34,611 nucleotides of DNA from Candidatus Micrarchaeota archaeon (GTDB taxonomy: Archaea > Micrarchaeota > Micrarchaeia > Anstonellales > Bilamarchaeaceae), in the NCBI GenBank assembly GCA_964479815.1, contig CAYZNP010000001.1, forward strand, positions 1-34,611. Direction: 5' to 3'. A program made the position numbers and the translations under genes. A model generated the notes under the pieces. It did not search any database. It was not told the origin of the DNA and worked only from the letters and a program-made list of their open reading frames with translations. Numbering within the stretch: the first letter of the stretch is position 1; every line of letters begins with the position of its first letter. Below are positions 3,666 to 33,558 of this stretch, in pieces.

Positions 3666-3669
3666 TGCC

Positions 3670-13594: not shown

Positions 13595-14581
13595 ATGAGC
13601 GGATTCTTTAGTCGTGCCACTTCCCTACTCTCAGACCCCCGCCTGCCGATTTACTATCCCTTCAACCGGACAAGGTGGGATTCCCTGAATCTGCGCATGG
13701 ACAAGGTGGAACTTGGCAGCCGCCCCGCACTGGACTTCCTCTTCACCGTCGATGTGGAAGATGATTACATAGAAGAAGGGGATGAACAACGCCGGAAGGC
13801 CGATTGTGTAATCCCCTACCTTAAGAAGGTGAAGGGATTTTTCGCGAATCAGGGCATCCGGGCCACGCTTTTCGTGCAGGGCAACCTGGTGGGCCGGGCT
13901 TCAGAGGAGCTTCACGGCCTCGGCAATGGCCATGAAATCGCCCTACATGGCTATGCCCATGAGCTGTGGGGCAGCTCTTGGTTCGTGAGGGCCCCGCCGC
14001 CTCCTCCGGAAGTGCGCAAAAGCGGCCTCACGAAATCACTCGCGGCTTTCGCGGATGTGGGCTTCCCACGGCCGCTCTCCTTCCGAGCCCCGCGGATGAT
14101 TCTGGACGACACCTCGTTAGGGCTGTTGAAAGCCACGGGCTTCACTGTAGATTCTTCATTCCCTTCCTATGCCGGAGGGACACCCGTCCTTGGCATGCGG
14201 CAGGGTGTTGCCGAAGTTCCGGTCTCTTTCGACCCCCGCCCCGCGTTCAGGCGCTCTCTGACCGCCAGGTACGCCATGTTCAACACGTGTAACATTGCCA
14301 CCGGCGCGTTCACCGATGGCATTGTAGCCGCAGCCATGCGGGTGGCGAGGGTGCAGGCGCTTTCAGGCCAGCGGCCGTTCATTGTTTCCTACAGCCACGA
14401 CTGGGAGTTCTTCAGGCCACCGGAGTGGGCCGACCCTACACAGTACGGATTTTCCTCCGATGATAACTTCAGGGTGTTGGCGGATGCGCTGGGCGCCCTC
14501 AGAAAGGCATTCTCATTGCGTTTTACCACGATGCAGGAATTCGTCCGCTCCCGGCTGCCCCTTCCTGGCGGCAGGGACTAA
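13595..14581 (+). CDS. Polysaccharide deacetylase family protein (CE4 / NodB-like)
   Basis: FTVDVEDDY (Asp-Asp metal/catalytic motif as in DVEDYF-type deacetylases) and IALHGYAHE (His-His motif). 328 aa. Confidence 0.6.
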   Translation: MSGFFSRATSLLSDPRLPIYYPFNRTRWDSLNLRMDKVELGSRPALDFLFTVDVEDDYIEEGDEQRRKADCVIPYLKKVKGFFANQGIRATLFVQGNLVGRASEELHGLGNGHEIALHGYAHELWGSSWFVRAPPPPPEVRKSGLTKSLAAFADVGFPRPLSFRAPRMILDDTSLGLLKATGFTVDSSFPSYAGGTPVLGMRQGVAEVPVSFDPRPAFRRSLTARYAMFNTCNIATGAFTDGIVAAAMRVARVQALSGQRPFIVSYSHDWEFFRPPEWADPTQYGFSSDDNFRVLADALGALRKAFSLRFTTMQEFVRSRLPLPGGRD

Positions 14582-14678
14582 AAACAGCATCGGAATTCCG
14601 GGGTGCGATGACAGGGCTGAAAAGAGCGTTCCGGGTGAGGTTCGCTACCCTGCCGAAGATCGCGATGCGGGAAGAATG

Positions 14679-14687
14679 ATATAAAAA
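14679..14687 (+). promoter_or_regulatory. TATA box (ATATAAAAA) about 27 nt upstream of the ATG at 14710
   Basis: A/T-rich element in the 128-nt spacer with leaderless-type spacing. Confidence 0.45.
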
Positions 14688-14709
14688 CATCTCTGCCCAA
14701 TAGCGTCTC

Positions 14710-15873
14710 ATGACAGAGGGACCGGAACGGTGCAGTGTTTACACCGCGTCCACCCCGCTCTTGGTCCTACTCGCCACGGGCACTGCCTCCTTCCAGGACA
14801 AGAACCGGATTAAATACCTCATCCTTCCCTTCGACTTCCGCGGTGCGGACCGATTCAGGGACGCGCTCGAGCGGTGGAAGGGCAATCCATTCTCCCGCAT
14901 ACTGCTCCTCGAAGGCCAATACGGCAAGGTTCAGGTGCGTTTCGGGGCGATACGGCGGGCCGTCGCCAGCAGGAAGAACATAGGCGCGCTGAGGGCTTTT
15001 TTCGCAAGCGAGCCCACGCTTGCGCAGGGCTTCGATGCCTTCATATCCGCGGTGGAAAAACCCGAGGGGCAGTTCATAGGCCACGTGAACCGGCAGCGGG
15101 GAGGCACCAACTATCATCTGGGCGGCATGGGCGCCTACCTGTCCGATTACCTTGTCGAGTCCCGCTGGCGGACACTGCTGAAGAAAGCTATCTACGGCCC
15201 CTGGTATTCCCATGCGCCTTCCTACCCTGACTACGCGTATATAGACAAGCTCGTCATCATACGCCCGGACCTGGTTGCGAAAGGCGCGCTGGGCAAGGGC
15301 GCGGCCGGAAAGGAGGTGGTCCCGCTCCCGCAGGACCTGTTCGTCCGCCTTGCTGGTGCAGGGCTCGCCGCCGAAATCCTGAAGGAATGGGGTATCGGCC
15401 GGCTTCCAGAATGGGACGTGTTCATAATTGCGCCGCTGTCCGAGATGAATGCGCAGCTGGGGGGCGTGGAAAGGCTGAAGGCCCTTTTCGGCCGGCTGCT
15501 TGACGCGCTTGGAAAAAGCGGCAGGCGGACGCTGTTCAAATACCACCCGAGAGAGGAGCTCGGCGACTTTCTGGGCGCTGAGGGGAGGCCGGGCGTGAGC
15601 ATGGCGCCAGCGGCCATACCCTCCGAGATACTGTGCATGTGCAGCAGGTCCGGCAGGGGGAAGACGGCGGTGAGCGACGTCTCAACAGCGCTGTTCCTTT
15701 TCAAGCTCATGAATCCTGAAGCCGTGGCAATATCCATAATGGGCGTCCTCGGTTACCAGTACGCCGAAACCGAGGAAGTCTTCCTCAGCTGCGGCATACT
15801 GATACCAAAGACCATGGAAGAGCTGGAAGCCCTTGCCGTGCGGCAGGAAAAGCGGCCCGCTAGAGCCCGTTGA
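14710..15873 (+). CDS. Uncharacterised 387-aa protein; candidate CMP-sugar-dependent (sialyltransferase-like) glycosyltransferase
   Basis: No classical GT2/GT4 motifs. The N-terminus VYTASTPLLVLLATG, the segment FIIAPLSE, then LFKYHPREE and AIPSEIL recall the HP-motif region shared by bacterial sialyl/Kdo transferases (GT38/GT52/GT80 type). This is recognition by eye only. Confidence 0.35.
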   Translation: MTEGPERCSVYTASTPLLVLLATGTASFQDKNRIKYLILPFDFRGADRFRDALERWKGNPFSRILLLEGQYGKVQVRFGAIRRAVASRKNIGALRAFFASEPTLAQGFDAFISAVEKPEGQFIGHVNRQRGGTNYHLGGMGAYLSDYLVESRWRTLLKKAIYGPWYSHAPSYPDYAYIDKLVIIRPDLVAKGALGKGAAGKEVVPLPQDLFVRLAGAGLAAEILKEWGIGRLPEWDVFIIAPLSEMNAQLGGVERLKALFGRLLDALGKSGRRTLFKYHPREELGDFLGAEGRPGVSMAPAAIPSEILCMCSRSGRGKTAVSDVSTALFLFKLMNPEAVAISIMGVLGYQYAETEEVFLSCGILIPKTMEELEALAVRQEKRPARAR

Positions 15874-16438
15874 AGCGCACGACGTCCTTCAGCCTTCTTT
15901 TTGGCACCATGAGGGTTCTCCCTTCCAGGAAATATGCGGTGCTGCCGCCTGGCCCGCCCATGTCTAATGCCTTCGATTTCCAGGCAGGATAGCCGAGCGC
16001 CACCGCCAGGGTGAATGCGTAACGGCTGCCAGTCCCAAGCAGCTCCGCAGCCTTCCGGCCGTCTGCCACTGCCAGACAGCACGAACCAAGGCCGGACGCG
16101 GTGGCAGCAATCATGATGCTCTGGGCCGCAAGGCCTGCGTCGTATTCGTAGCCTGACTGCCTTATCTCCCTGTCTGCGAGTATGAAAATGTATGCCGCAG
16201 GCGCCTTTCCAGGCGGCTGCTTCCAGCCTGGCAGCCTGGCCGCCCACCTGAACGCGGCGCCTGCCTTCGTTGCCAGTTCAGGGTCGTCCACGACGAGGAA
16301 GACTAGCGGCTGGAGGTTGGCTGCGGTTGGCGCGAGCCGCCCTGCATCACATACTCTTCCCAGCACCTTCCTGGTGATTTTGCGCGCTGTAAATTCGCGT
16401 ATGGCCCTTCTCCTGATTATCGCGTCATAGGCGTCCAT
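15860..16438 (-). CDS. Nitroreductase-family flavoprotein
   Basis: RRRAIREFTARKI...L..V.DAGRLAPTAANLQPLVFLVV is the typical nitroreductase N-terminal signature. 192 aa. It overlaps the convergent gene by 14 nt. Confidence 0.8.
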   Translation of the reverse strand: MDAYDAIIRRRAIREFTARKITRKVLGRVCDAGRLAPTAANLQPLVFLVVDDPELATKAGAAFRWAARLPGWKQPPGKAPAAYIFILADREIRQSGYEYDAGLAAQSIMIAATASGLGSCCLAVADGRKAAELLGTGSRYAFTLAVALGYPAWKSKALDMGGPGGSTAYFLEGRTLMVPKRRLKDVVRFNGL

Positions 16439-16452
16439 GGCAGCCCCTGTCT

Positions 16453-16499
16453 CTTTAAGAATAGCACTTTTAAATATACCTTCACCTCATATATACACG
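16453..16499. promoter_or_regulatory. Divergent promoter region with several TATA-like elements (CTTTAAGAATAG, CTTTTAAATATA, CATATATACAC)
   Basis: A/T-rich cluster between the nitroreductase ATG (16438) and the TTG start at 16571. Assigning individual boxes to strands is uncertain. The plus-strand unit appears to have a real 5' leader ending in GAGAGGT (16556-16563). Confidence 0.35.
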
Positions 16500-16570
16500 G
16501 GATAGGGATACACAGCAACGAAAGGTGAGCCATCACCATCTGGTGGCATTTTTCGTGAGAGGTAGTCTTC

Positions 16571-17434
16571 TTGGATGACTGGACATTCAAATCCATAACC
16601 ATACTGCCCGGCACGGACAAGGCCGGCAAGCCTGAGGGATTTGACAGGCTGACGCTGAAGCCAGGCGACGTGCTGTCCATAGTTGGGCCGACCGGCTGCG
16701 GCAAGACGACGTTCATAAACGACCTGGAGCTGTTCGCAAGGGGAGACACCATAACCCGGCGTCACGTGCTTGTCAACGATGCCGTGCCGAGCCGCGATTT
16801 CACCGATGACGCATCTAGGAACCCGATTGCGCTGATAACGCAGAACACCAAATGCCTGGCAGACCTCAGCGTGCACGCTTTCCTCACCGTGCACGCAAGG
16901 GCCCGCAAGATAACCAGCCCGGCGGTCGTCACCGAAACCGTGGGCCTGGCGAACAAATTCACCGGCGAGCCCATAGACCCGGAGAGCAAGACGACCACCC
17001 TTTCAGGAGGGCAGACGCGGGCCATGCTCATCGCCGACGCCATAGTAATAGGCAACGCACCGGTCATCCTCCTGGACGAGATAGAGAATGCCGGCATATT
17101 CAAGGACGAGGCCCTGGCGGAGATAAAGCGCCACAAGAAGGCAGTCATCTTCGTCACCCACGACCCGTCCGTCTCGCTGCTTTCTGACCGGCGCTTGGTC
17201 ATGAAGAACGGCGCAGTGGTCAAGATAATTGAGTTCAGCGCGGACGAGGACACGGCCCGTGACCGGGCGCTGTTCTACGACCGGAAGATCGCCGAGCTGC
17301 GCGAGCACGTCCGGCAGGGCAAGCTGGTCTCCAAGCATCTGCTGGCTGAGCTCGACCGGAAATACCGTGAGACCGACATGGGCTCCGCAGAGCCGGCAAA
17401 AGCCGGCAAAAACGAGGAAGAGGCAGGGATATGA
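16571..17434 (+). CDS. Stand-alone ABC-type ATPase (single nucleotide-binding domain, no cognate permease in the window)
   Basis: Walker A GPTGCGKTT, Q-loop ITQN, signature LSGGQ, Walker B ILLDEIE, H-loop FVTHD, and a charged coiled C-terminal tail. The start is TTG, with no in-frame ATG before the Walker A. It is preceded by a GAGAGGT Shine-Dalgarno at 7-nt spacing. Confidence 0.75.
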   Translation: MDDWTFKSITILPGTDKAGKPEGFDRLTLKPGDVLSIVGPTGCGKTTFINDLELFARGDTITRRHVLVNDAVPSRDFTDDASRNPIALITQNTKCLADLSVHAFLTVHARARKITSPAVVTETVGLANKFTGEPIDPESKTTTLSGGQTRAMLIADAIVIGNAPVILLDEIENAGIFKDEALAEIKRHKKAVIFVTHDPSVSLLSDRRLVMKNGAVVKIIEFSADEDTARDRALFYDRKIAELREHVRQGKLVSKHLLAELDRKYRETDMGSAEPAKAGKNEEEAGI

Positions 17435-17508
17435 GTACGGCGCCAAAACGATTGTTTCATTATTCAATATATATTGTTTCAGCTCCATGAAACACAAGAG
17501 GTGAAGAT

Positions 17509-18219
17509 ATGAAACTGATAATAATAGCAGGACCGTCTTCGTCAGGCAAGACCGCCGTGGCAAAGCAGGTCATAAGGAAGCTGCAGAAGGATGATAAAAT
17601 CTCCTACCTGAAGATAGACGTCGTCAGGGCGTTCGAGGACGAGGAGATACGCAAGGAATTCGGGATTCCGGCCAAGAAAATATATTCCGGGGACCTGTGC
17701 CCTGACCATGCCGGCGTGATGGTGATCGGCGATGCCATAGACTGGGCCGAGAAGAACGGCTCCACCCTGCTTCTCATCGAAAGCGCAGGCCTGTGCCTCC
17801 GCTGCTCCCCCTACCTGACGCAGGGGCTCGGCATAGTGACCCTCAGCGCAGAAAGCGGCATGAACACGCCGCTGAAGATGGGCGCGATGCTCGGGCTCGC
17901 GGACCTGGCGGTGGTCACGAAGATTGACCTGGTTTCCCAGGCAGAGCGCGAGGTTTTCAGGGAAAAGATAAAGGAGGTCCGGGGCGACATGAAGATAATA
18001 GAGACCAACGCGCTCCAGGGCACTGCCATAGAGAGGCTTGCCGATGCGGTCCGTGAATCAAAGGATATAGACCCCAAGAACCTCTATCTCAAGGGCACGC
18101 CCCCGCTGGGAACGTGCACGCTGTGCGTGGGCATCAAGAAGATTGGATGGAAAAACCACTTCGGCGTCATACGCAAGCTGGAAGGCGGCGTGGCCGATTA
18201 CATGTACCGCGGGGAATGA
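17509..18219 (+). CDS. G3E-family (HypB/UreG-like) P-loop GTPase metallochaperone with a C-terminal CxxC extension
   Basis: Walker A GPSSSGKT. SGDLCPDHAGVM resembles the HypB GxCHLDAHM metal site. LLLIESAGLCLRCSP resembles ENVGNLVCP. VVTKIDL is the NKxD equivalent. There is an extra roughly 45-aa tail with GTCTLCVG. A strong Shine-Dalgarno, GAGGTGA, lies 5 nt upstream. Confidence 0.7.
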   Translation: MKLIIIAGPSSSGKTAVAKQVIRKLQKDDKISYLKIDVVRAFEDEEIRKEFGIPAKKIYSGDLCPDHAGVMVIGDAIDWAEKNGSTLLLIESAGLCLRCSPYLTQGLGIVTLSAESGMNTPLKMGAMLGLADLAVVTKIDLVSQAEREVFREKIKEVRGDMKIIETNALQGTAIERLADAVRESKDIDPKNLYLKGTPPLGTCTLCVGIKKIGWKNHFGVIRKLEGGVADYMYRGE

Positions 18220-18230
18220 GGTGCATCTGC

Positions 18231-18887
18231 ATGACTACGAAAATAAACTGGAAGCCGCCGGGAAAGAACTGCGGCATGTGCGGCGCGAAGAGCTGCGCTG
18301 AGCTGGTAAGGCTGGTCCAGGAAGGGAAGAAGGACCCGGGAGAGTGCCCGTTCTACAGCTCGGATCAGGGCGGCATATGCGAAGTGAAGCATGACTACGG
18401 CACCAAGGACGTCCTGGGCGCGGAGTTCGATTTCGTGCTCGAGTCGCTGCCCGGCGAGAAGTCATCGCGCAAGATTGTGCTGCCTTTCCGCGGAGACCTC
18501 GTGGAGAAGATGGGCATAAAGAAGGGCGATATAGTGCTCGGCAGGCCCATGGGTCAGGGTTGCCCGCTCCAGCATGTGATTGAGGTGATTGACGCGGATC
18601 CGATCAGCGGCGTCATAACCGGCTGGGTGGTTGGGCCGAAGTTCGCGCGCGACAGGGCCGCAGCCAGCATCAAGGACGTGAAGGCCTACCATGTCATTGC
18701 CTTCGAGGGCATCGCCCGCAAGGTGAAGCGCGACCCCATATTCGGCCTGCGGCAGCGCTTCCTGCCAGGCTACTGCATGATGGGCCTGGGCCACACCGCA
18801 GTGGTCAACACGGTCCTCAAGCGCGACGACGGGAAAATATTCGTGCACCTGGAGGACATCCGGGTGGGAGTGGCATGCAGCCCCTGA
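18231..18887 (+). CDS. Fe-S protein: N-terminal RnfB/CFeSP-type [4Fe-4S] motif plus a roughly 175-aa domain of unknown function
   Basis: PGKNCGMCGAKSCAELVRLVQEGKKDPGECP gives exactly Cx2Cx4Cx16C. I do not recognise the rest of the protein. GAGGTG lies 7 nt upstream of the ATG at 18231. An alternative ATG at 18216 overlaps the upstream stop (ATGA). The track start at 18114 was rejected. Confidence 0.65.
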   Translation: MTTKINWKPPGKNCGMCGAKSCAELVRLVQEGKKDPGECPFYSSDQGGICEVKHDYGTKDVLGAEFDFVLESLPGEKSSRKIVLPFRGDLVEKMGIKKGDIVLGRPMGQGCPLQHVIEVIDADPISGVITGWVVGPKFARDRAAASIKDVKAYHVIAFEGIARKVKRDPIFGLRQRFLPGYCMMGLGHTAVVNTVLKRDDGKIFVHLEDIRVGVACSP

Positions 18888-18925
18888 AGCAGGATGCGGC
18901 CAGCTCGATGTGAAAGGTGTGTCAT

Positions 18926-19963
18926 ATGGCAAAAGTGAAGCTCGGGAAACGATTTGTGGGCGATGGAGAGCCCTGCTACGTGGTATTCGAATGCGGGGCT
19001 ACTTTCAACGGCCTGGAGGGCGCTAAGAAGCTCGTCAAGGCCGCGGCAGATGCTGGCGCGGACGCCATAAAGTTCCAGGTGCTGGACCCGGACCGCCTCA
19101 TGGGCGACCACAGCCTCACAATATCCTATACCACAGCCACAGGCCCTAAGACCGGCAACCTCTACGACATCCTTAAGAAGCGCGTGCTCACGAAGGCGCA
19201 GTGGAAGGAGCTTAAGAAGCATGCGGACCAGCAGGGCATAACCTTCTGCGCCACAGCCTCCTTCCCCGACGAGGTGGACTTCCTGGTGGAAATCGGCTCT
19301 GCGGCCATCAAGATAAACGCCGGCGACGTCAACCACTACTATCTCATAGATTACGCATCGAAAAAGAAGGTGCCCATGATGCTCGACGGCAGGGCGAAGT
19401 ACGACGAGCTGGAAAAGGCAGTGGAGATATGCGAGAAGAACGGCAACAGGAACATAGTGATAATGCACTGCCCGTCCGGCTACCCTGCCCGCAACGACGG
19501 CGTGAATCTAAGCACGCTTTCCTCGCTTAAGGAGATATACGACTACCCCATAGGCTTTTCCGACCATTCGCGGGAGAAACTCATGAACTACCCAGCCATG
19601 GTGATGGGCGCGGACATCCTGGAGAAGACACTCACGCTCAACAAGAACGCCGAGGGCATCGAGCACCTCATGTCCCTGGAGCCCAAGGAGGCGAAGGAGT
19701 TCGTGGCTGAGGTCCGTGCCATAGAGGAGGCCATCGGCTCGCCCCGCATCATGTTCAGCAAGAAGGTCAATGACTCGGCCAGGCGGAGCATCGCCGCGTC
19801 AAAAGACATCGCGGAGGGCGAGGAAATAACGCTCAAATCCATAGAGTTCAGGCGCCCGGGCAACGCCGGCGTCTCCTGCGCGGACTATGAGGCCGTATGT
19901 GGCAGGAAGGCGGCGAGGCACATCAGGAAGGACGAGTTCATCACCTGGGAGATGCTGGCCTGA
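18926..19963 (+). CDS. Divergent NeuB-family nonulosonic acid synthase (TIM barrel plus C-terminal SAF/antifreeze-like domain)
   Basis: CYVVFECGATFNG...AGADAIKFQ, IMHCPSGYP, IGFSDHS, LEKTLTLNK...EHLMSLEP, and a C-terminal RRSIAASKDIAEGEEIT (SAF). The canonical E-x-G-x-NH-x-G motif is replaced by ECGATFNG. The ATG at 18926 follows AAAGGTG. The track start at 18917 is GTG. Confidence 0.75.
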   Translation: MAKVKLGKRFVGDGEPCYVVFECGATFNGLEGAKKLVKAAADAGADAIKFQVLDPDRLMGDHSLTISYTTATGPKTGNLYDILKKRVLTKAQWKELKKHADQQGITFCATASFPDEVDFLVEIGSAAIKINAGDVNHYYLIDYASKKKVPMMLDGRAKYDELEKAVEICEKNGNRNIVIMHCPSGYPARNDGVNLSTLSSLKEIYDYPIGFSDHSREKLMNYPAMVMGADILEKTLTLNKNAEGIEHLMSLEPKEAKEFVAEVRAIEEAIGSPRIMFSKKVNDSARRSIAASKDIAEGEEITLKSIEFRRPGNAGVSCADYEAVCGRKAARHIRKDEFITWEMLA

Positions 19964-20829
19964 TGCTCTGGGCGCTCCTCTGCCTGCTGGCCGCAGTTGC
20001 GTCCACCGGCGCCATCGTCGTGAGCAAGCGGCTTGCGCAGGAGTGCGACCTGTTCCATGTGGCTGCCGCGCAGTTCTTTTTCACCGCGCTGTTCCTCGTG
20101 CCTGCCGCGGCCCTTATGCCAGCGCCGCCCGAAGGCTATGCGCTTCCGTTGCCCGCGGCCGGGGCGATTTTGCTGGCCGCGCTCCTGAACGTGTCCTCGG
20201 TTTACATATATCTCCGGGCGATAAAGTCCGGCAGCATATCTATCCTGGTGCCGCTCAGGAACACCACCCCGCTTTTCGTGGCGTTTCTAGCCATCGTGCT
20301 CCTCTCCGAGCAGGTGACTGCGACTGTGATCGGCGCGGCGCTGCTCATAGTTGCCGGCGCTGCGCTGCTCAACCAGGCTAGGGAGAAAGGCAAGGCAGCG
20401 CTCGCCCGCGGCGCCGGCGCCGCGCTACTGGTCGCGCTCATGGCCGCATTCGTGTTCATCATCGTGAAATACATAACAACCATCTCCGGCCCGGTACCAT
20501 ACCTTGTATTTTCTTCCCTCGCGGCCGCGGTCATCTCAGGTGCATTCCTGGCGCTCGCACCTGGCCTGCAGCCTTTCGTCCATGCCGCCAGGCGCCATGG
20601 CCGCGCGTTCCTGCTGCTGGGCATCCTTGCCGCAGCCGCCTCGCTTGCCACGGTGTACGCCATCTCCCTGGAAAAGGCGTCGGTGGTGTCGACCTTCCTG
20701 CGGGTGGAGCTGCTCTTCGCAGTGGCAGCCGGCGCTCTGTTTTTTAAGGAAGAAGTGGGGATATCAAAGATCGCAGGGGCCCTCCTAGTGCTTGCGGGGC
20801 TCGTGCTGGTAATCATGAGAGGCGGCTGA
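19963..20829 (+). CDS. EamA/DMT-superfamily transporter (about 10 TM)
   Basis: Two hydrophobic EamA-like repeats, ending in the typical AGALLVLAGLVLV tail. The ATG at 19963 overlaps the upstream stop (ATGA). The track start at 19897 was rejected. Confidence 0.7.
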   Translation: MLWALLCLLAAVASTGAIVVSKRLAQECDLFHVAAAQFFFTALFLVPAAALMPAPPEGYALPLPAAGAILLAALLNVSSVYIYLRAIKSGSISILVPLRNTTPLFVAFLAIVLLSEQVTATVIGAALLIVAGAALLNQAREKGKAALARGAGAALLVALMAAFVFIIVKYITTISGPVPYLVFSSLAAAVISGAFLALAPGLQPFVHAARRHGRAFLLLGILAAAASLATVYAISLEKASVVSTFLRVELLFAVAAGALFFKEEVGISKIAGALLVLAGLVLVIMRGG

Positions 20830-21855
20830 ATGGAAATGCCAAAGGAGCTCAGGGACGCGGTAGAGGCCGAATACCACTCGCTCGGCAGCATAGGGAGCTG
20901 GGCGGACGCAGGCGGCCACGCCATAAACAGCAAGAATTACGTGCTCACTTTCGCAGGTGGCAAAAAGCTGCTCTGCAAATACCTGGAAGGGGCGGACGAG
21001 GGCCGCCTCAGCTCACTGCTCGCCATCCTGGAGTTCTGCAGGAAAAAGGGCGCGAAGGTGCCCGCCCTGGCCCCATCGGATTCCGGAAGGGAAATCTGCA
21101 CGCACGGCCAGGGGCTCTTCTACCTCCGTGCCTTCCATGAGGGCGGATACTTCAGCGGCGGCATGGGAGAACTGGAGGATTTCGCCTCGTCGCTGGCAAA
21201 GCTCCACCACATACTCAAAGCATGCACGCTTGAATATCCGCTTTCTGCCCCGCAAAAAACCCACCTGCGCAAGTACGTGCACCCCAAGCCCGAGGAACTG
21301 GAGCGCATCAGGTCAGCGGCAGGGAGTAGCCATGCGGACGTGGACCGGCTTTTCCTCGCCAATTTCGATTTCCTGAAGTCAGAGTACGCTTCGGATGCCG
21401 GGCGGGAGCGCGGCATTGACCGGAGCAGGATACGCGAGCAATACGTGCACGGGGACCTCCATCCCCTCAACGTCATCTTCAATGGCGGCAGGACCGAGGC
21501 CATACTGGATTTCGACGGCCTTTCACACGGGGCACTGGCGTATGACGTCTCCTTCGCGTGCTTCCGCTTTGCCATGTACGGCGGCAAGGACAGCATGGCC
21601 GACATGAAAACCGCTGCGGCGCGTGCAAGGGTGTTCCTGGGGGCCTACGAGGCTAAAAATCCCCTGGACAAGGAGGAGCGCAGGCTTATCGGCCATTATT
21701 TCATCCACGAGTGCCTCAACCGCATAAGTTATATTCTTAGGGATAAAACAGATACTGGCGCGTGGAATTCCGATCTACGCAGGCAGTTGGATTATCTTAA
21801 CATGGCCAAGGCCATGAAAATAGAAAGACTGCTGGGGACTGGTGACAATGGCTAA
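20830..21855 (+). CDS. APH/choline-kinase-fold phosphotransferase (small-molecule or sugar kinase)
   Basis: Catalytic loop HGDLHPLNVIF (HxDxxxxN) followed by ILDFDG (DFD metal-binding). 341 aa. The start abuts the upstream stop. Confidence 0.7.
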   Translation: MEMPKELRDAVEAEYHSLGSIGSWADAGGHAINSKNYVLTFAGGKKLLCKYLEGADEGRLSSLLAILEFCRKKGAKVPALAPSDSGREICTHGQGLFYLRAFHEGGYFSGGMGELEDFASSLAKLHHILKACTLEYPLSAPQKTHLRKYVHPKPEELERIRSAAGSSHADVDRLFLANFDFLKSEYASDAGRERGIDRSRIREQYVHGDLHPLNVIFNGGRTEAILDFDGLSHGALAYDVSFACFRFAMYGGKDSMADMKTAAARARVFLGAYEAKNPLDKEERRLIGHYFIHECLNRISYILRDKTDTGAWNSDLRRQLDYLNMAKAMKIERLLGTGDNG

Positions 21856-22549
21856 GCGCATGGATAATCTCTGCATAATCCCGGCCAGGGGAGGCTCCAA
21901 GAGGATTCCGCGGAAGAATGTTGCGGAACTCTGCGGCAAGCCCCTCATCGCCTACACCATAGAGGCAGCCCTGCGCTCAGGCCTGTTCGGCGCAGTGGTG
22001 GTATCCACGGACGACGCTGAGATAGCGTCGGTTTCCCGCAGGTACGGCGCCGAAGTGATGGACCGCAGCAGCAGGCTCAGCGGCGACAGGGCCACGGTCA
22101 TAGATGTCTGCCTTGATGTCGTCGCCAGGTGCAAGAAGCAGGGCAGGCGCTTCAGGCGCCTGTGCATCCTCCTCCCAACCAGCCCGCTGCGTGATGCTGA
22201 CGACCTGCGCGCCGCGTTCAGGAAGTTCAGCAAAAGCAGCGCCAACGCGCTCATGGCAGTGACCACCTACGCGATTCCGCCGTTCTGGGCGCTCAAGGAG
22301 GAGAAGGGCTTCCTTGTTCCCTATTTCGGCCAGGACTGCATGGTGAGGAGCCAGGACCTGCCGGAGGTTTTCGTTGACAATGGCGCCATATACCTGTTCG
22401 ACATGGGCGCTTTCATGAAGGAGAAGCGCTTCTACTGCTCCAAGCTCGTGGCGTTCAGGATGCCCAGGGAGAAATCCGTGGACGTTGACACGCCTGCAGA
22501 CCTGAGCATGGCGGGGTTTTTCCTAAGGCAGAGGAGGCGCGGAAAATGA
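21848..22549 (+). CDS. CMP-nonulosonic acid synthetase (acylneuraminate cytidylyltransferase family)
   Basis: CIIPARGGSKRIPRKN, GKPLIAYTIEAA, LLPTSPLR, and NGAIY are classical NeuA/PseF/LegF motifs. The start is ambiguous: GTG 21842, ATG 21848 or ATG 21860. Confidence 0.8.
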   Translation: MAKRMDNLCIIPARGGSKRIPRKNVAELCGKPLIAYTIEAALRSGLFGAVVVSTDDAEIASVSRRYGAEVMDRSSRLSGDRATVIDVCLDVVARCKKQGRRFRRLCILLPTSPLRDADDLRAAFRKFSKSSANALMAVTTYAIPPFWALKEEKGFLVPYFGQDCMVRSQDLPEVFVDNGAIYLFDMGAFMKEKRFYCSKLVAFRMPREKSVDVDTPADLSMAGFFLRQRRRGK

Positions 22550-24870: not shown

Positions 24871-25677
24871 TCAGATCTTGTATCTTGGCCTGCGTGGCAC
24901 CTGCACCGTGTAGAATTCGGGCTCGCGGACGTTGATTCCCGCGCTTTTCATGAAGTTCTTCGCCTTGGTCGTGCTCTGCTCTGAATAATGGAAGATGTTG
25001 GCCGCGGACACGGCATCGGCCTTCCCTTCCGCGATGCCATCCACCAGATGCTGCCAGTCGCCCACGCCACCGGACGCTATCACCGGTATGTCGACCGCTT
25101 CAGACACACTCCTCACAAGCCCAAGGTCGTAGCCCTTCCGCATGCCGTCGTTGTCTATGGAAGTGAGGAATATCTCTCCTGCGCCGCGCTTCTCCGCCTC
25201 CTTTGCCCAGGCCGGAGCCGAAAGGCCGGTGGCCGTGCTGCCGCGGTCTATGAAAACCTCATGCCCGCCCCCGGCGTTCCGCTTGGCGTCGATGGACACC
25301 ACGATGCACTGGTTGCCGAAAACCTGCGCCGCCTCCCTGATGAATTCCGGCCGCCGGACAGCCTCGGTGTTGATGGCCACCTTGTCGGCACCCTCGCTGA
25401 GCAGGGTCCTGATGTCAGCGACGCTCCTCACCCACCCGCCCACGGTCAGGGGCACGAAGCACCTGCTGGACAGTTCCCTGAGGTCCTCGTGGAACTTCCC
25501 CCTGCTCCCCTCCTCACGGGTGACGTTCAGGAGCACTATCTCGTCTATAGCCCAGGTGTTGAAGAAATCCACTGCGGTGTAGGCGTTTCCCACGGAATTG
25601 ACGTGCCTGAAGCCCATGCTCTGGACGAGCATCCCGTCCCGCCACAGGAGGCACGCGATGAGGCGGTGCTTAAGCAT
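24871..25677 (-). CDS. HisF-like cyclase subunit (WbuZ-type) of the N-acetyl-sugar amidotransferase system
   Basis: RLIACLLWRDGMLVQS, the DEIVLLNV motif, PLTVGGWVRS, and VIASGGVG are HisF-fold motifs. Co-located with HisH-like and WbuX-like genes, not with his genes. Confidence 0.8.
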   Translation of the reverse strand: MLKHRLIACLLWRDGMLVQSMGFRHVNSVGNAYTAVDFFNTWAIDEIVLLNVTREEGSRGKFHEDLRELSSRCFVPLTVGGWVRSVADIRTLLSEGADKVAINTEAVRRPEFIREAAQVFGNQCIVVSIDAKRNAGGGHEVFIDRGSTATGLSAPAWAKEAEKRGAGEIFLTSIDNDGMRKGYDLGLVRSVSEAVDIPVIASGGVGDWQHLVDGIAEGKADAVSAANIFHYSEQSTTKAKNFMKSAGINVREPEFYTVQVPRRPRYKI

Positions 25678-26347
25678 CCGTTCCGCCCCCCGCCGGCGTT
25701 TTGCCCGCCTGCCTGCTCTTTTTGGCGTAATCGATGAAATTCTTCAGCAGCCTCAGCCCTGCCTTCTGGCTTTTCTCAGGATGGAACTGCACGCCGAATA
25801 TGTTGCCCTTGCGGATGCTCGCGACCACATCCTCGCCATGCCAGCACGTTGATGAGACGGTGCCTTTCTCGCTTTCAGCCGGCTCAAGGAAATAGCTGTG
25901 GACGAAATAGAATACCGGCCCCGTGCCCAGCCCCCCGAAAAGCACCGGGTCTGCCCGCTCCCGGACCGCCACGTCGTTCCAGCCCATGTGCGGGACCTTT
26001 ATGCGCTGGTCCTTCGGCTGGATTTTCCTCACCACCCCTTTCACCCAGCCAAAGCCAGCGTGCTCGCCGTGCTCCAGGCCGCGCTCCGCGAGGAACTGCA
26101 TGCCCAGGCAGATTCCGAGGTAGGGCTTTTTTTTGCCGATGACTTCGGCACGAAGGGTCTCGAGGAAGCCGGCCTTCTTCAGGTTCGCCATGCCGTCCCC
26201 GAAAGCGCCCACGCCCGGCACGACTATCGCATCCGCAGCGGCGAGTGCGGACGGCTCTTTCACTATGGCCACCTGCTCGCCCAGGGCCTCGAACGCGTTG
26301 GCTATGGAGCGCAGATTTCCCATACCGTAATCAACTATGGCAATCAT
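25670..26347 (-). CDS. HisH-like class-I glutamine amidotransferase subunit (WbuY-type)
   Basis: IAIVDYGMGNLRSI, GICLGMQ (nucleophile Cys), and FGVQFHPEKS. The ATG at 26347 with an AGGAG Shine-Dalgarno is preferred. The track start at 26449 would overlap the upstream gene by 41 nt. Confidence 0.8.
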   Translation of the reverse strand: MIAIVDYGMGNLRSIANAFEALGEQVAIVKEPSALAAADAIVVPGVGAFGDGMANLKKAGFLETLRAEVIGKKKPYLGICLGMQFLAERGLEHGEHAGFGWVKGVVRKIQPKDQRIKVPHMGWNDVAVRERADPVLFGGLGTGPVFYFVHSYFLEPAESEKGTVSSTCWHGEDVVASIRKGNIFGVQFHPEKSQKAGLRLLKNFIDYAKKSRQAGKTPAGGGTDA

Positions 26348-26408
26348 ACCGTTTGCTCCTGCATTGCCGGGCGGCCGCCTGCACGCCGGCTCATCTTCGT
26401 TCTCCTGG

Positions 26409-27680
26409 CTATAGCCAGATGTACTCGCTGTCTTCGGGGACGTGGTCATCCCTTGAGTATTTGGGCTGGTTGTGCGACCTCAGGATGCCGCGGTCCGCGA
26501 CCTGCGGTATCCTCGCCTTCTCAACTCCAGGGTCCTTGACATGGTTCGCGACCGAGTCCAGCACCTTCCATCTGCCGTCGCGGCCCTTCTCCCATATTTT
26601 CGGGTCACGCATGGGCTCCACGCAGCTCATGAACTCCTCCTCGCTCATGCCCACGAACTTCAGGAACAGGTCAAGGTCGCTCGGGCGCACGTGGTCGTAC
26701 TTCTTCACCATCTCTATGCCCTCCTCGCGCGTCATCCTGCCGTGCCGTATGTCGTTGCTCGCGTCGTCGGTGGCCCGGCCATAGCCGAACTTCAGGTACT
26801 TCAGGTAGTCGTGCGCGCCGTTCGCGTGTATGTCGTCCAGCTTGTCGTAAAGATGGTACGTCCGCTCCCTCGACACCGCGGTTTCGAACCCGAATTTCTC
26901 TATCATCATGCGTGTCTGCGCCCTCGCATCCCAGCTGATGTAATTGGACAGGTAGATGCCGCGCACGCCGACCGCTTCTATCTCCTCGTCGCTCGGATAG
27001 TAGAACGGCGCGAGGTCCAGCTTTGTGATGCCTCCGTTGTCCGGGTCGTCGAGCACGTCGTCGGGCTCGAACCCCCGCATGCTGTGCTCCTGCCTCACCT
27101 TCTTGGAGAACTCTATCATATCATCCTGGTTGAACATGCCGACCAGCTCGGCAAAGCCGTGCTCGCCCCAGATGATGAGCGGTATCTTGTACATGACCGC
27201 GGCCTTTATCGGGAACGTCATTATGCCTGCGTGGTAGTGCCAGGTTATGTCACCGACCTTCCTGAGCATGTAGCGCGATATCTTCCTGACCGATTCGGGG
27301 TTCGATGTGAACCTGAGAAGGTCGCAGTTGAACTGCTTCAGCATGTTCGTGAGGTTCCTTATGCCCCTCTTGGTGTTGAAGCCGTGGTTGTAGGTAACGA
27401 ACAGGGGGTTGTAGCCGAGGACGTTCTTGATGAAATATGCCTGGAAGTGGCTGTCCTTGCCGCCGCTCACCGGGATTATGCAATCGTAGGGTGAGCCGTT
27501 CGCCCTGGCCTTCGCGCTGTATTCCTTCAGCAGGCCCTTGAGTATCTGCAGCCTCTCGTCCCAGTTCTGTATCTTCGGCCTGCTCTCCTGGAGCCGGCAT
27601 CCGCTGCACACCCCTTCCTCGTCGAATATGATTGTCGGCTTGGCATTTTCAGGGTAAACGCACCTGGCGCAATATCTCAT
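26409..27680 (-). CDS. N-acetyl sugar amidotransferase (WbuX/PseA/PtmG family, PP-loop ATP pyrophosphatase)
   Basis: N-terminal zinc ribbon CARC...CSGC, the PP-loop IIPVSGGKDSHFQAY, and a size of 423 aa. Gene order with the HisH/HisF-like partners is as in the WbuXYZ acetamidino modules. Confidence 0.8.
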   Translation of the reverse strand: MRYCARCVYPENAKPTIIFDEEGVCSGCRLQESRPKIQNWDERLQILKGLLKEYSAKARANGSPYDCIIPVSGGKDSHFQAYFIKNVLGYNPLFVTYNHGFNTKRGIRNLTNMLKQFNCDLLRFTSNPESVRKISRYMLRKVGDITWHYHAGIMTFPIKAAVMYKIPLIIWGEHGFAELVGMFNQDDMIEFSKKVRQEHSMRGFEPDDVLDDPDNGGITKLDLAPFYYPSDEEIEAVGVRGIYLSNYISWDARAQTRMMIEKFGFETAVSRERTYHLYDKLDDIHANGAHDYLKYLKFGYGRATDDASNDIRHGRMTREEGIEMVKKYDHVRPSDLDLFLKFVGMSEEEFMSCVEPMRDPKIWEKGRDGRWKVLDSVANHVKDPGVEKARIPQVADRGILRSHNQPKYSRDDHVPEDSEYIWL

Positions 27681-29729: not shown

Positions 29730-30782
29730 TCATTCAACAAATTCCAACGACATAGGCGTGCCGCGCCTGACCGCCTTCTTGGCTTTCTTCCCAAGCAGCG
29801 ATTCGTAGAATTTCGGATGGAGGCCATGGCCCGGCCGTATGACCCTTATGTTTTCCTTCGTCAGCCTCTCCCCTTCGCGGATGTCTTTCACCGCAAATAT
29901 GGAGCGCATCGCGAAGACGTGGCCTTTCGTTTCCTCCCCCCGCTCATAAGTCGCTTTGCCAAGCTCCTGCTCCGCCTCCCTGACCGCGCCCACCATCGCT
30001 GCGAATTCCTTCGGCTCGAGCGAGAATGCGGCATCCGGCCCGCCCATCTTCCGGTCGAGTATGAAATGCTTCTCTATGACCTTCGCGCCGAGTGCCACTG
30101 CGGCTATGGGCGCGACGGTGCCCGCGGAATGGTCGGACAGCCCTGGCACGACCCCGAAGCGTTCCGCGATGTCCGCTATCGTCCGCAGGTTCATCTCGTC
30201 CGGCGGCGCTGGGTATGCGCTGGTGCATTTCAGGATTATTATCTTGTCGTTGCCCTGGCCGCGTATGGTCTTCACCGCCAGCTCAAGGTCCTCGAGTGTC
30301 GCTACCCCGCTGGATATTATCACCGGCTTCCTTTTCGCCGCCACGTATTTGAGCAGCGGGATGTGGTTGATCTCGAAAGAAGCGATTTTGTATGCGGGAA
30401 CGCCGAGCTTCTCAAGGAAATCGACCGCGGTCTCATCGAAGGGTGACGAGAAGAAGATGAGCCCTTCCGCCTCGGCTTTCTCCTTCAGCTCCGGGAACCA
30501 GTCCCACGGGGTGTACGCCTCTTCGTAGAGGTCATAGAGCGTTTTTCCGGCCCACAGCGTGCCCTTTATCCTGAAATACTCGCTGTCCGCCTTCATGGTG
30601 ATGGTGTTCGGGGTGTAGGTCTGGAACTTGACAGCATCAGCGCCCGCCTTCTTCGCCTCCTCTATGAGCTTCAGTGCGTATTCCTTCTTCTGCAGGTGGT
30701 TGCAGGATATTTCTGCGACCATGAGGCACGGCGCGTTTCCGCCGACCTTCCTCCCGCCGATGGAGACCTCCTTCGCCATCAT
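29730..30782 (-). CDS. pseI: Pseudaminic acid synthase
   Basis: CLMVAEISCNHLQKKEYALKLIEEAKKAGADAVKFQTYTP, SSPFDETAVDFLE, KIASFE, LKCTSAYPAPP, GLSDHS, and EKHFILDR..GGPDAAFSLEP, plus a C-terminal SAF domain. Canonical NeuB/PseI motifs, and the gene is downstream of pseB-pseC. Confidence 0.85.
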   Translation of the reverse strand: MMAKEVSIGGRKVGGNAPCLMVAEISCNHLQKKEYALKLIEEAKKAGADAVKFQTYTPNTITMKADSEYFRIKGTLWAGKTLYDLYEEAYTPWDWFPELKEKAEAEGLIFFSSPFDETAVDFLEKLGVPAYKIASFEINHIPLLKYVAAKRKPVIISSGVATLEDLELAVKTIRGQGNDKIIILKCTSAYPAPPDEMNLRTIADIAERFGVVPGLSDHSAGTVAPIAAVALGAKVIEKHFILDRKMGGPDAAFSLEPKEFAAMVGAVREAEQELGKATYERGEETKGHVFAMRSIFAVKDIREGERLTKENIRVIRPGHGLHPKFYESLLGKKAKKAVRRGTPMSLEFVE

Positions 30783-31921
30783 CGCGCCTCCCTGATGCTC
30801 TCGCCGAGCGCCTTTGCCACGCGCTCCACGTCGCTTTCCTTCATGCCGTAGAACAGCGGCAGGGTGAGTATGCGTGAGAACGCATCCTCCGTGGCCGGAT
30901 AGTCTGCCTCGTGTACCGGGAAATTCTTCCTGTAGTAGGTGAATTTGTAGGCTGGTATGTAATGCACGTTCACGCCTATGCCTTTCTTCCGCATGGCTGT
31001 GAAAACCCGGTCACGGTTCATGCCCCTGTCAAGCAAAACTGTGTAGAGATGCCAGGCGCTTTCAACACCCGGTGCCACGTACGGCGTCGTGACCCCCTCA
31101 GCCTTCCCGAGCGCTTCGTTGTATCCCCGTGCGATTTCCTTCCTGCCCTTTATGAACATGTCAAGCTTTTTCATCTGCGATATCCCCAGCGCGCACTGCA
31201 TGTCTGTTATGCGGTAGTTCCTGCCGAGCATCTTGATGTCGTAGGCGTAGCCGGCATCCGGTCCGAACCGCTCGCGCGCGTTCTTGTCCATGCCGTGATT
31301 GCGGAGCATGCGCAGCTTCTCCGCTAGCGCGCCGTCCTCGGTGCTCACGGCCCCGCCTTCCCCCGTGGTTATGTGCTTGACCGGATGGAATGAGAACGTG
31401 GTCATGCCTGCGAACGTGCCGACCACCCTTCCGCCGTATTTCGCGCCGAGCGCGTGCGCAGCGTCCTCAATCAGGAAAAGGCCCTTCTCCGCTGCGATTT
31501 CACGCAGCGCCTTTATGTCGCAGGGCTGGCCTGCATAGTCAACGTAGATGATGGCCCTCGTCTTCGCTGTGATCCTCTTCCGCACCTGCGCCGGGTCGAT
31601 GTTCAGCGTTTTCGGGTCGATGTCGGCGAATACTGGCTTGCAATTGTTGTAAGCGATGCAGTTTGCCGACGCGGCGAACGTGAAAGGCGTCGTTATGACC
31701 TCGCTTCCGGCAGGAAGCCCGAGCGCAGCGACTGCTATGTCCAGCGCCGCGGTGCCGGAATTCACTGCCACCGCGTGCTTCGCGCCGGTATACGCGCAAA
31801 TCGCCTTCTCGAACTCATCGACCTTAGGGCCGGTCGTGAGCCAGTCGCTCTTCAGGGTCGCTACGACCGCGTTGATGTCATCATCGTCTATGAACTGGCG
31901 GCCGTATGGAAGCTGGTTCAT
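30779..31921 (-). CDS. pseC: DegT/DnrJ/EryC1-family aminotransferase, PseC-type (UDP-4-amino-4,6-dideoxy-N-acetyl-beta-L-altrosamine transaminase)
   Basis: LPYGRQFIDDDDI N-terminus, SGTAALDIA, the EDAAHALGA motif, and FSFHPVKHITTGEGG (PLP-lysine). Positioned between pseB and pseI. Confidence 0.8.
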   Translation of the reverse strand: MNQLPYGRQFIDDDDINAVVATLKSDWLTTGPKVDEFEKAICAYTGAKHAVAVNSGTAALDIAVAALGLPAGSEVITTPFTFAASANCIAYNNCKPVFADIDPKTLNIDPAQVRKRITAKTRAIIYVDYAGQPCDIKALREIAAEKGLFLIEDAAHALGAKYGGRVVGTFAGMTTFSFHPVKHITTGEGGAVSTEDGALAEKLRMLRNHGMDKNARERFGPDAGYAYDIKMLGRNYRITDMQCALGISQMKKLDMFIKGRKEIARGYNEALGKAEGVTTPYVAPGVESAWHLYTVLLDRGMNRDRVFTAMRKKGIGVNVHYIPAYKFTYYRKNFPVHEADYPATEDAFSRILTLPLFYGMKESDVERVAKALGESIREAR

Positions 31922-31924
31922 TAA

Positions 31925-32911
31925 TCAGAGCCACCCCTCTTTCTTCAGGACCTTCTTCAGCTCGTCCTTGCTGAGCCGCCAGTCGTTGTTGTCGCTGGAG
32001 TATGAGAAACCCTCGGGCAGCGGCTTCGCACCGGAATGGTTCGCTGTATCCCAGAATGCGTACTCTGGCTCTATGACGAAAATGCCATCAAGCTGCTTGG
32101 TGTGCCTCGCCTCCTCCGGCGTTATGAGGACCTCGTGCAGCTTCTCCCCCGGCCGTACGCCGATTATTTTCTTTTTCGCGCCCGGCGCGATGACATCGGC
32201 CAAATCCGTGATTTTCGTGCTTGGTATCCTCGGCACGAATATCTCCCCGCCTTTCATCGACCCTATGGCCTTGAGCACGAGCGCCACGCCCTCTTCGAGC
32301 GTTATCCAGAATCTCGTCATCCTCTCATCGGTTATCGTCACCGCGCCGCCCTCCTTCTGTTTTATGAAAAGGGGCACGACGCTGCCGCTGCTGCCGATCA
32401 CGTTGCCGTACCTCACACAGCTGAACCGCGTCTTCTTGACGCCAGCGTATGCGTTGGCCTGGGTGAAGAGCTTCTCTGCAACCAGTTTTGTCGCGCCATA
32501 CAGGTTTACCGGCTGCACCGCCTTGTCGCTGCTCAGCGCCACCACCTTCCCCACGCCGTTGTCTATGGCAGCGTCTATCACGTTCTCGGCGCCGTGTATG
32601 TTCGTCTTCACCGCTTCCATCGGGTTATACTCGCACACGGGCACGTGCTTGAGCGCAGCCGCATGCACCACGATGTCCACGCCGTTCATTGCACGGTAGA
32701 GCCGTTCCCTGTCCCTTACATCACCGACGAGGAAGCGCAGCTTGGGCTGGCCGAGCTTCCGCTCCATTTCCACCTGCTTGAGCTCTCCCCTCGAGTACAC
32801 CCTTATGGCCTTGGGGTTATGGTCCCTGAGCAGCACCTCAGCGAACTTAGTGCCGAACGAACCCGTGCCGCCGGTCACGAGGACCACCTTGCCGTCTAAA
32901 ACGTCATCCAT
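31925..32911 (-). CDS. pseB: UDP-N-acetylglucosamine 4,6-dehydratase (inverting), PseB/FlaA1/CapD-short type
   Basis: VLVTGGTGSFG, VGDVRD, AAALKHVP, NIHGAENV, LSSDKAVQPVNLYGATK, and RYGNVIGSSGSV. The ATG at 32911 (MDDVLDGK) is preferred over the track start at 33013. Confidence 0.85.
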   Translation of the reverse strand: MDDVLDGKVVLVTGGTGSFGTKFAEVLLRDHNPKAIRVYSRGELKQVEMERKLGQPKLRFLVGDVRDRERLYRAMNGVDIVVHAAALKHVPVCEYNPMEAVKTNIHGAENVIDAAIDNGVGKVVALSSDKAVQPVNLYGATKLVAEKLFTQANAYAGVKKTRFSCVRYGNVIGSSGSVVPLFIKQKEGGAVTITDERMTRFWITLEEGVALVLKAIGSMKGGEIFVPRIPSTKITDLADVIAPGAKKKIIGVRPGEKLHEVLITPEEARHTKQLDGIFVIEPEYAFWDTANHSGAKPLPEGFSYSSDNNDWRLSKDELKKVLKKEGWL

Positions 32912-32938
32912 AAACACACCAGAAGATAACCTATTAGG

Positions 32939-32947
32939 TATAAAAAA
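32939..32947. promoter_or_regulatory. Shared TATA element (TATAAAAAA) in the 56-nt divergent spacer between pseB and gmhA
   Basis: About 25 nt from the plus-strand ATG at 32968 and about 32 nt from the minus-strand ATG at 32911. A second A-rich stretch follows. Confidence 0.45.
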
Positions 32948-32967
32948 GAATAAAAACCGTCCCCGAT

Positions 32968-33558
32968 ATGATGTCTGTGATGAAACCGTCCGATTTGCTG
33001 TTGGAGCATGCAAAAGTCTGCCAGGGCCTCAGGGCAGCAGACATAGAGGCAACTGCATCGCCAATCCTATCCGCCCTCAAGGACGGCGGCAAGGTCCTCA
33101 TCTGCGGCAATGGCGGAAGCGCAGCGGATGCGCAGCATTTCGCCACGGAGCTCACCGGGAGATTCATGCGCGAACGCAGGGCGCTGCCGGGCATAGCGCT
33201 GACCACGGACAGCTCGGCAGTCACGGCTATTTCGAACGACTATGGCTTCGGGCGCGTGTTCGCACGGCAGGTAGAGGCGCTCGGCAAAAGGGGCGACGTG
33301 CTCGTGCTCCTGAGCACCAGCGGCGAGTCCGAGAATCTGCTGGAGGCTGCGAGGACTGCGAAGGCCATGGGCATCCCCACGGTGGCGCTCCTCGGAAAGG
33401 GTGGCGGGAAACTCAGGCAGATGTGCGACCGGGCGCTCGTGGTCGCCTCGGACAGCGCGCCCACGATACAGGAGATGCACATACTCATAATCCACTGCAT
33501 CTGCGGTCTGGTGGACGACGCGTTCGCCATCAGGCCTGTGCCACACAAGAGCGGGTAA
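32968..33558 (+). CDS. gmhA: Sedoheptulose-7-phosphate isomerase (canonical GmhA, paralogue 2)
   Basis: [52 protein letters not shown], and [10 protein letters not shown] are textbook GmhA motifs. Confidence 0.85.

Follow-up and report, generated by a model that had tools for sequence, protein, structure and literature searches.

A divergent archaeal homolog of HP-motif sialyltransferases in a pseudaminic-acid-type gene cluster lacks the acidic pair of the catalytic-base motif

The 34,611-nucleotide stretch of Candidatus Micrarchaeota DNA analysed here (the window) is a surface-glycan gene cluster. Its open reading frame (ORF) at positions 14,710 to 15,873, hereafter the target, encodes a distant relative of the bacterial sialyltransferases of glycosyltransferase (GT) families GT38 (PF07388), GT52 and, more remotely, GT80. 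An initial annotation had proposed the target as a transferase of nonulosonic acids (NulO) or, alternatively, as the missing PseG-like step of their synthesis. Our results support the transferase reading, with a predicted GT-B fold and an HP motif, and we favour it because the target is the sole candidate in a cluster otherwise complete for a pseudaminic-acid-type (Pse) sugar activated by cytidine monophosphate (CMP). We estimate the probability that the target is an active NulO transferase with a non-canonical catalytic base at about 0.6, and it is probably through the target that a pseudaminic-acid-type sugar is attached to the cell surface.

We searched 1.84 billion cluster representatives exhaustively with phmmer (E ≤ 1e-3) and recovered 208 relatives of the target, 74 of them at E ≤ 1e-10 and 11 at E ≤ 1e-30. 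Almost every one of them is 340–390 amino acids long and aligns with the target over its whole length, the best being 34% identical to it. Family alignments of 70 and of 136–138 members have the consensus elements TPYH (in the β1-α1 loop), ND..PE.Q, Y-V-E-D-G-x-x-A-Y, K-Y-H-P-R-E, P-x-E and G-D-x-S-T-A-L. In the larger alignment, G139, Y143, K277 and P280 of the target stand in invariant columns, and H279 and E306 are shared by 135 and 134 of 136 sequences, respectively. In the C-terminal half of the family, KYHPRE and the IPSE element are thus more conserved than anything else and are not chance strings. Close relatives of the target itself were scarce. A word-indexed homolog search found the target only and, with the 70-sequence profile, one further protein; scanning GTDB genomes and JGI metagenomes with single proteins gave no close relatives. 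The gene also occurs on Logan contig L001, which has 2 differences from the window over 4168 nucleotides; both lie outside the gene, so that this second copy says nothing about selection. The closest subgroup in the GTDB scan is found in DPANN archaea, in metagenome-assembled genomes (MAGs) of Ca. Iainarchaeum (L006) and of a member of the Micrarchaeia (L007).

Scanned singly, 64 of 70 relatives match PF07388 (alpha-2,8-polysialyltransferase, GT38) at E ≤ 1, with a best E of 4e-23, and 12 of 70 match PF07922 (GT52) weakly. A Micrarchaeia homolog that is 29% identical to the target (P0008) scores 57.9 bits over PF07388 model positions 2–311 of 316, the gathering threshold being 23.3 bits. The homolog in L006 (17.8 bits) falls under that threshold, and the target fails it with no Pfam match at all, so that its link to PF07388 is transitive or from profile to profile. 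A profile comparison with GT38, as suggested in the initial annotation, supports this link: aligned by hhalign with E. coli K1 NeuS (UTI89 sequence), the family profile gave 94% probability (E 1.3e-7), with the motifs in register (YvEDG with I-E-E-G, KYHPRE with KPHPKE, and GDxSTAL with GLTSSSL). Against sequences from the PDB, the family profile matched PmST1 (GT80) across KGHPR...SFE; phmmer searches of the same sequences returned one chance dehydrogenase match (E 0.46) for the target and nothing for its relative P0045.

The AlphaFold2 model of the target, built from the 70-sequence alignment, is very confident (predicted local distance difference test 92.8, predicted template-modelling score 0.92) and has two Rossmann-like domains, the predicted fold being GT-B as had been anticipated. 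Its best Foldseek match in the PDB is the M. haemolytica polysialyltransferase MhPST (5wcn_A; E 7.9e-10, template-modelling score 0.53; 5wc6 was also matched), followed by the GT80 sialyltransferases of P. dagmatis and P. multocida and then by generic GT-B enzymes and the GT52 Neisseria enzyme NST. The 208 homologs and the confident fold rule out a spurious ORF. The family to which the target belongs is large and mostly uncharacterised, and branches from the superfamily of polysialyltransferases and lipooligosaccharide sialyltransferases. The initial view that archaea have no well-established family of NulO transferases is to be qualified, the family being partly charted in that most of its members already match PF07388.

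The D/E-D/E-G and HP motifs are common to GT38, GT52 and GT80 (PMC2169525). In register with both NeuS and PmST1, KYHPRE corresponds to the HP motif, as had been proposed from the letters. In NmB-polyST, H278A and P279A raise the Km for CMP-N-acetylneuraminic acid (CMP-Neu5Ac) (PMC2169525), and in MhPST H291 stabilises the CMP leaving group, aided by S339 and T340 (PMC5517516). The distance from H279 to E306 in the target, put initially at about 25 residues, is 27, the same as that from H311 to E338 in PmST1, where E338 is a ribose-hydroxyl ligand; the near-invariance of E306 bears out the attention first drawn to the IPSE region. S325 and T326 (Ser in 117 and Thr in 109 of 136 sequences) are the counterparts of MhPST S339/T340 and PmST1 S355/S356, which are ligands of the CMP phosphate (PMC5517516), and lie 46 residues after the HP motif versus 48 in MhPST. 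Of 11 highly conserved columns in the C-terminal, donor-binding domain, the target keeps 10, which is also the family median. Judged by these residues, the CMP-sugar-binding apparatus of this domain is complete.

The HP motif had initially been taken for the full signature, and it proved real, but its companion D/E-D/E-G motif is degenerate in the target and had been overlooked. This loss and several other observations weigh against an active transferase. The target lacks both acidic residues of the motif (L137 and G138) and keeps the Gly alone. Asp or Glu occupies the base column in 133 of 136 relatives, including all of the nearest ones (YGEDG in L006 and P0008, YVEEG in L010, and YVEDG in P0007 and P0012). 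His18 of the β1-α1 loop, present in 103 of 126 sequences, has been lost in the target too. Changes equivalent to the loss of the acid are near-lethal to characterised enzymes: E153A and G154A of NmB-polyST are inactive (PMC2169525), MhPST, whose catalytic base is E153, has a kcat/Km of 117,488 that drops to 0.01 in E153A, with a 300-fold loss in E152A (PMC5517516), and D141A of PmST1 reduces activity 20,000-fold, as quoted in PMC2169525. There is also no evidence that the L-G-G variant is conserved, because no relative more than 37% identical and carrying it was found in the homolog, GTDB and JGI scans. His136, two residues before the lost base, is found at its column in the target alone, and any part that it might play in compensation is conjectural. 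Scanned against Pfam and NCBIfam, the target gave zero matches even at E ≤ 10; the initial statement that it carries no GT2 or GT4 motifs holds for this reason. Finally, we found no biochemical study of any member of the family in the literature.

In the model, the degenerate motif lies between strand β5 (133–138) and the helix at 140–143, the position at which the base E153 of MhPST is found (the β5-α5a loop; PMC5517516), and 141 residues separate the base position from the HP motif, versus 125–138 in GT38. Target positions 18 and 138 (window 14,761–14,763 and 15,121–15,123) co-vary (contingency 105/20/0/3). The sequences without an acid in the base column, 3 of 128, all lack His18 as well, and none keeps the His without the acid (hypergeometric probability ~0.005, calculated by hand). 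Apart from the target these are P0080 and P0119, whose contigs are too short for an informative context. The coupling suggests that His18 and the base-column Asp/Glu cooperate, as is the case for Q41/Q44 and E153 of MhPST, and points to a possible His-Asp pair in the family. In the N-terminal, acceptor and catalytic domain the target keeps 11 of 15 highly conserved columns, the fourth lowest count of 138, and its losses are confined to this domain.

On the reading that we favour, the C-terminal domain would hold the donor through H279, P280 and R281, which would stabilise its CMP phosphate, through E306 as a ligand of the ribose, and through S325 and T326 as ligands of the phosphate. The donor is most likely a CMP-activated nonulosonate of the pseudaminic-acid type, supplied by the neighbouring PseB, PseC, PseI and PseF together with the WbuX/HisHF amidination genes. 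Its sugar would be moved, with inversion, onto a surface-glycan intermediate of a DPANN archaeon near Ca. Iainarchaeum. The N-terminal domain has been remodelled, with the general-base Asp/Glu pair becoming Leu-Gly and the coupled His18 becoming Leu. If the target is active, deprotonation of the acceptor must come from elsewhere, for example from His136 or from the phosphate or carboxylate of the donor, or else the acceptor might need no base. The more specific proposal, that the target is an active but base-less archaeal pseudaminic-acid transferase in which a relocated His136 base or substrate-assisted catalysis has replaced the His18/Asp138 pair, is tentative, and the odds are against it. 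On this proposal, the replacement could also have accompanied a switch to a different acceptor chemistry. If true, the target would be the first nonulosonate transferase that can be assigned in archaea, as well as a natural case of catalytic-residue migration among GT-B sialyltransferases.

The genes around the target point to the sugar that such an enzyme might use. As first described, the window encodes two NulO synthases, the NeuB-family proteins at 18,917–19,963 and 29,730–30,782, and one CMP-sugar synthetase, a PseF equivalog (Table 1). The first of these synthases shares only 34% identity with its PseI-type counterpart in L006. We presume that the products of the HisF-, HisH- and WbuX-like genes install an acetamidino group on the sugar. 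Two genes of GT2 and one of GT4 are also present, together with a set for 6-deoxyhexose nucleotide sugars and genes for a GNAT protein, a methyltransferase, a polysaccharide deacetylase, a GFO/IDH/MocA oxidoreductase and a class III aminotransferase. Two absences claimed initially are upheld, in that no PseG was detected in any window ORF tested, and that a hidden Markov model of the family found one member only, leaving the target as the sole HP-motif transferase homolog in the window.

Table 1. Position and strand of the target, its motifs and associated genes in the window
Feature	Position	Strand	Remarks
TATA-like AT-only element ATATAAAAA	14679..14687	+	Ends 23 nt 5' of the target ATG
Target ORF	14710..15873	+	ATG start, 387 aa; GT-B, GT38/GT52-related HP-motif CMP-nonulosonate transferase homolog
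T15-P16-L17-L18, degenerate TPYH of the β1-α1 loop	14752..14763	+	Family His18 replaced by Leu
Y135-H136-L137-G138-G139, degenerate D/E-D/E-G motif	15112..15126	+	Family Y-V-E-D-G; end of strand β5; NeuS I-E-E-G
K277-Y-H279-P280-R281-E282, HP motif	15538..15555	+	Aligns with KPHPKE (NeuS) and KGHPR (PmST1)
E306 of IPSE	15625..15627	+	Candidate ribose-hydroxyl ligand; aligns with Glu of PmST1 'SFEVLMM'
S325-T326 of SDVSTAL	15682..15687	+	Family GDxSTAL; aligns with GLTSSSL of NeuS
Second, divergent NeuB-family synthase	18917..19963	+	PF03102; below the NeuB and PseI equivalog cut-offs (254 and 206 bits)
PseF-type cytidylyltransferase	21842..22549	+	Presumed CMP-sugar donor synthesis; TIGR03584 213.2 bits (cut-off 205.7); PF02348
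HisF-like, HisH-like and WbuX-type amidotransferase genes	24871..27680	-	TIGR03573 352 bits
PseI (29730-30782), PseC (30779-31921), PseB (31925-33013)	29730..33013	-	Core pseudaminic acid pathway; NCBIfam equivalogs above cut-off

Linkage of this kind extends to other members of the family. In loci L002, L004, L006, L007, L010 and L014, the family member has a NeuB gene, a CTP_transf_3 gene or both no more than 10 kb away; only a 10.8-kb contig departs from this pattern. The flanks of the window are 81–95% identical to the Ca. Iainarchaeum locus L006 (dehydratase 95%, epimerases 87% and 89%, PseB 88%, GNAT 84%, PseI 82%, and PseC, GT4 and nucleotidyltransferase 81% each), and the window therefore derives from a close relative of that archaeon. 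Between the flanks, where we compared window positions 13,595–28,458 with positions 5252–11,080 of L006, the block is rearranged and diverged: identity is 37% for the target, 55% for the deacetylase, 41% for the oxidoreductase, 34% for the aminotransferase and 24% for the cytidylyltransferase. About 12 kb of it is absent from L006, with genes for a nitroreductase, a stand-alone ABC ATPase, a HypB/CobW-like GTPase, an Fe-S protein, the second NeuB, EamA, an APH-like kinase and HisF/HisH/WbuX. This central block looks like a serotype-style variable region of a DPANN archaeon, and a donor-specific transferase would be expected to diverge along with the CMP-sugar synthetase and the tailoring enzymes, as the target does.

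The loss of the base might instead mean that the target is a catalytically dead or strongly impaired pseudo-glycosyltransferase in which the fold and the CMP-sugar pocket survive, either as a recent casualty of cluster rearrangement or as a CMP-nonulosonate-binding, scaffolding or regulatory protein. This reading is favoured by the ED to LG change at the base motif and the H18 to L change, since NmB-polyST, MhPST and PmST1 lose nearly all activity through single changes at equivalent positions (PMC2169525, PMC5517516), and it would fit the poorly conserved N-terminal domain, the location of the gene at a rearrangement junction relative to L006 beside the ~12 kb of inserted genes, and its status as a singleton without close relatives. 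Yet the ORF is intact, has a TATA-like promoter element and yields a very confident model; the donor-side motifs are all kept, which random decay does not favour, and simple decay is further opposed by the typical conservation of the C-terminal domain and the restriction of losses to the N-terminal one. PseB, PseC, PseI and PseF are all present and no other candidate CMP-sugar transferase is, so that an inactive target would leave the pathway without an outlet within the window. Moreover, some inverting GT-B enzymes, for example POFUT1, need no enzymic base. We regard an inactive target as unlikely on balance, though as a serious contender.

The two remaining alternatives keep the target active and change its reaction. 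The absence of a detectable PseG from the window ORFs, and the GT-B fold of PseG itself, would be consistent with the target being the missing PseG-like hydrolase, which removes uridine diphosphate (UDP) from UDP-2,4-diacetamido-2,4,6-trideoxy-L-altrose. This half of the initial proposal did not stand, however, and we consider it highly improbable: the target matches neither TIGR03590 nor Glyco_tran_28_C even at E ≤ 10, PseG is outside the top 50 Foldseek matches, which sialyltransferases head, and the family signature is the CMP-type HP/E/ST set of GT38 and GT80, not the UDP-binding set of GT28. In the locus of the closest metagenomic homolog (P0007, L002), a separate Glyco_tran_28_C+GNAT fusion gene, which is PseG-like, lies ~3.5 kb away in the same cluster. 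The base of C. jejuni PseG, His17 in the β1-α1 loop, has Leu in its place in the target. A polymerase that builds a nonulosonate homopolymer, like true GT38 enzymes, is suggested by the best Pfam and structural relatives, which are polysialyltransferases, but it too seems very unlikely. The similarity to GT38 is remote (13–15% identity, with the target below Pfam detection), the other glycosyltransferases and sugar pathways (heptose, 6-deoxyhexose, GT2, GT4) are typical of a hetero-oligosaccharide cluster, and none of the Kps-type export genes of bacterial polysialic acid synthesis is present in the cluster. This context of Pse genes and a hetero-glycan argues against polymerisation of Neu5Ac by the target. 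A KpsC/S-type reading was rejected, as was a Maf reading, the target having no match to the MptE-like domain (PF01973).

As a NulO transferase, the target can be set beside several known systems. With GT38 (PF07388; E. coli K1 NeuS, N. meningitidis SiaD and M. haemolytica PST, 5WCN), it shares the GT-B fold, the spacing of HP, Glu and Ser/Thr elements and, at the level of the family, linkage to NeuB and CMP-sugar synthetase genes. It differs in being ~15% identical to the solved structure, in having L-G-G in place of the acidic pair and in its archaeal host; its likely donor is a pseudaminic-acid derivative rather than Neu5Ac, and, set in a hetero-glycan cluster, it probably acts as a mono-transferase. 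GT52 (Neisseria Lst/NST, PF07922) and GT80 (PmST1) follow the same HP and D/E-D/E-G logic (PMC2169525) on a GT-B fold, but have no significant full-length sequence match with the target, in which the equivalent of PmST1 D141 is Gly, and GT80 has ~50 extra residues between the motifs. PseG has the GT-B fold and occurs in Pse clusters, whereas the nucleotide-binding signature of the target is of the CMP type. The known transferases of pseudaminic or legionaminic acid (Pse/Leg), namely Maf/MptE-like proteins, FlmG and the T. forsythia TagB-domain enzymes Tanf_01245 and TFUB4_00887, do the same job as we propose for the target, and the T. forsythia enzymes are reported to have D/E-D/E-G and HP motifs (PMC5420450). 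The target is a compact, stand-alone GT38-like protein of another family, and the Pfam scan gave no PF01973 (Maf), TPR/FlmG or TagB-domain signal for it.

Because the superfamily and its motifs are already known, and PF07388 captures most relatives of the target, the system is not of a novel kind. The novelty lies in a subgroup from DPANN archaea that is encoded next to genes for CMP-nonulosonate synthesis at most of the loci studied, in one member whose divergence puts it beyond Pfam and NCBIfam, and in the natural loss of both the catalytic acidic pair and its partner His. Archaeal N-glycans carry nonulosonic acids. As of 2018, among the organisms whose proteins are glycosylated with legionaminic acid, none had an identified transferase for this sugar (PMC6137143). 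In the library searched we found no later archaeal report of such a transferase, nor any paper that links DPANN archaea with nonulosonic acids or characterises a GT38-like Pse/Leg transferase. This compact GT38-like family of Iainarchaeia and Micrarchaeia MAGs, tied to CMP-nonulosonate clusters, is thus a concrete and cheap candidate for assay. The target, without residues that are indispensable in three model sialyltransferases, offers a natural test of the fold without its canonical base and a caution about annotating function from the HP motif alone.

The ORF itself and all of the strings quoted in the initial annotation were found in the translation (TPLLVLLATG at residues 15–24, FIIAPLSE at 238–245, LFKYHPREE at 275–283 and AIPSEIL at 302–308). 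Its attribution of an own TATA box to the gene is reasonable, because the spacing of the AT-only element upstream (Table 1) matches the geometry of archaeal leaderless promoters; the element is likely to be an archaeal promoter that yields a leaderless mRNA of the target. AT-only runs of 8–12 nucleotides lie 15–34 nucleotides 5' of at least nine other starts in the window (1126, 1832, 7516, 8432, 12,134, 13,595, 16,438, 17,509 and 28,952). These are consistent, in composition and position, with archaeal TATA boxes and mostly leaderless transcripts. At its 3' end the target overlaps a convergent nitroreductase gene (15,860–16,438, minus strand) by 14 nucleotides. The window contains no tRNA genes, and a sigma-70/terminator scan of it gave no significant result.

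Several other features of these loci were observed. On the plus strand at 1832–5609 of the window, genes for a HAD phosphatase, a nucleotidyltransferase, a SIS isomerase, a GHMP kinase and an epimerase follow one another and resemble a pathway to nucleoside-diphosphate-glycero-manno-heptose, which is unusual in an archaeon. On the minus strand at 5596–7590, within the glycan cluster, lies a 664-residue ORF without a Pfam or NCBIfam match, of which a 38-residue stretch alone matches L006; it may be a membrane polymerase, a flippase or oligosaccharyltransferase-like. Two ORFs overlap on opposite strands, at 28,871–29,470 (minus) and 28,952–29,728 (plus). The plus-strand ORF is a GT2 gene (E 5e-20) that is 67% identical to its L006 counterpart, and since the family match falls only on this strand, the minus-strand ORF is probably spurious.

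A trio of genes recurs beside members of the target's family, encoding a PseF-like cytidylyltransferase, a GFO/IDH/MocA oxidoreductase and a class III aminotransferase resembling glutamate-1-semialdehyde aminomutase (window 21,842–24,870, L006 5252–8345 and L002 7703–9899). The trio may put an extra amino group on the nonulosonate or on its CMP form. In L007 (5056–6801) and L004 (7366–8979), a gene for an HMGL-like protein of the pyruvate aldolase type lies directly 5' of the CTP_transf_3 gene and the family homolog, and in the Micrarchaeia locus L007 this protein is fused to an MptE-like/Maf-like domain. The HMGL-like protein could be a synthase that provides an alternative source of ulosonic acid, or else a second type of transferase.

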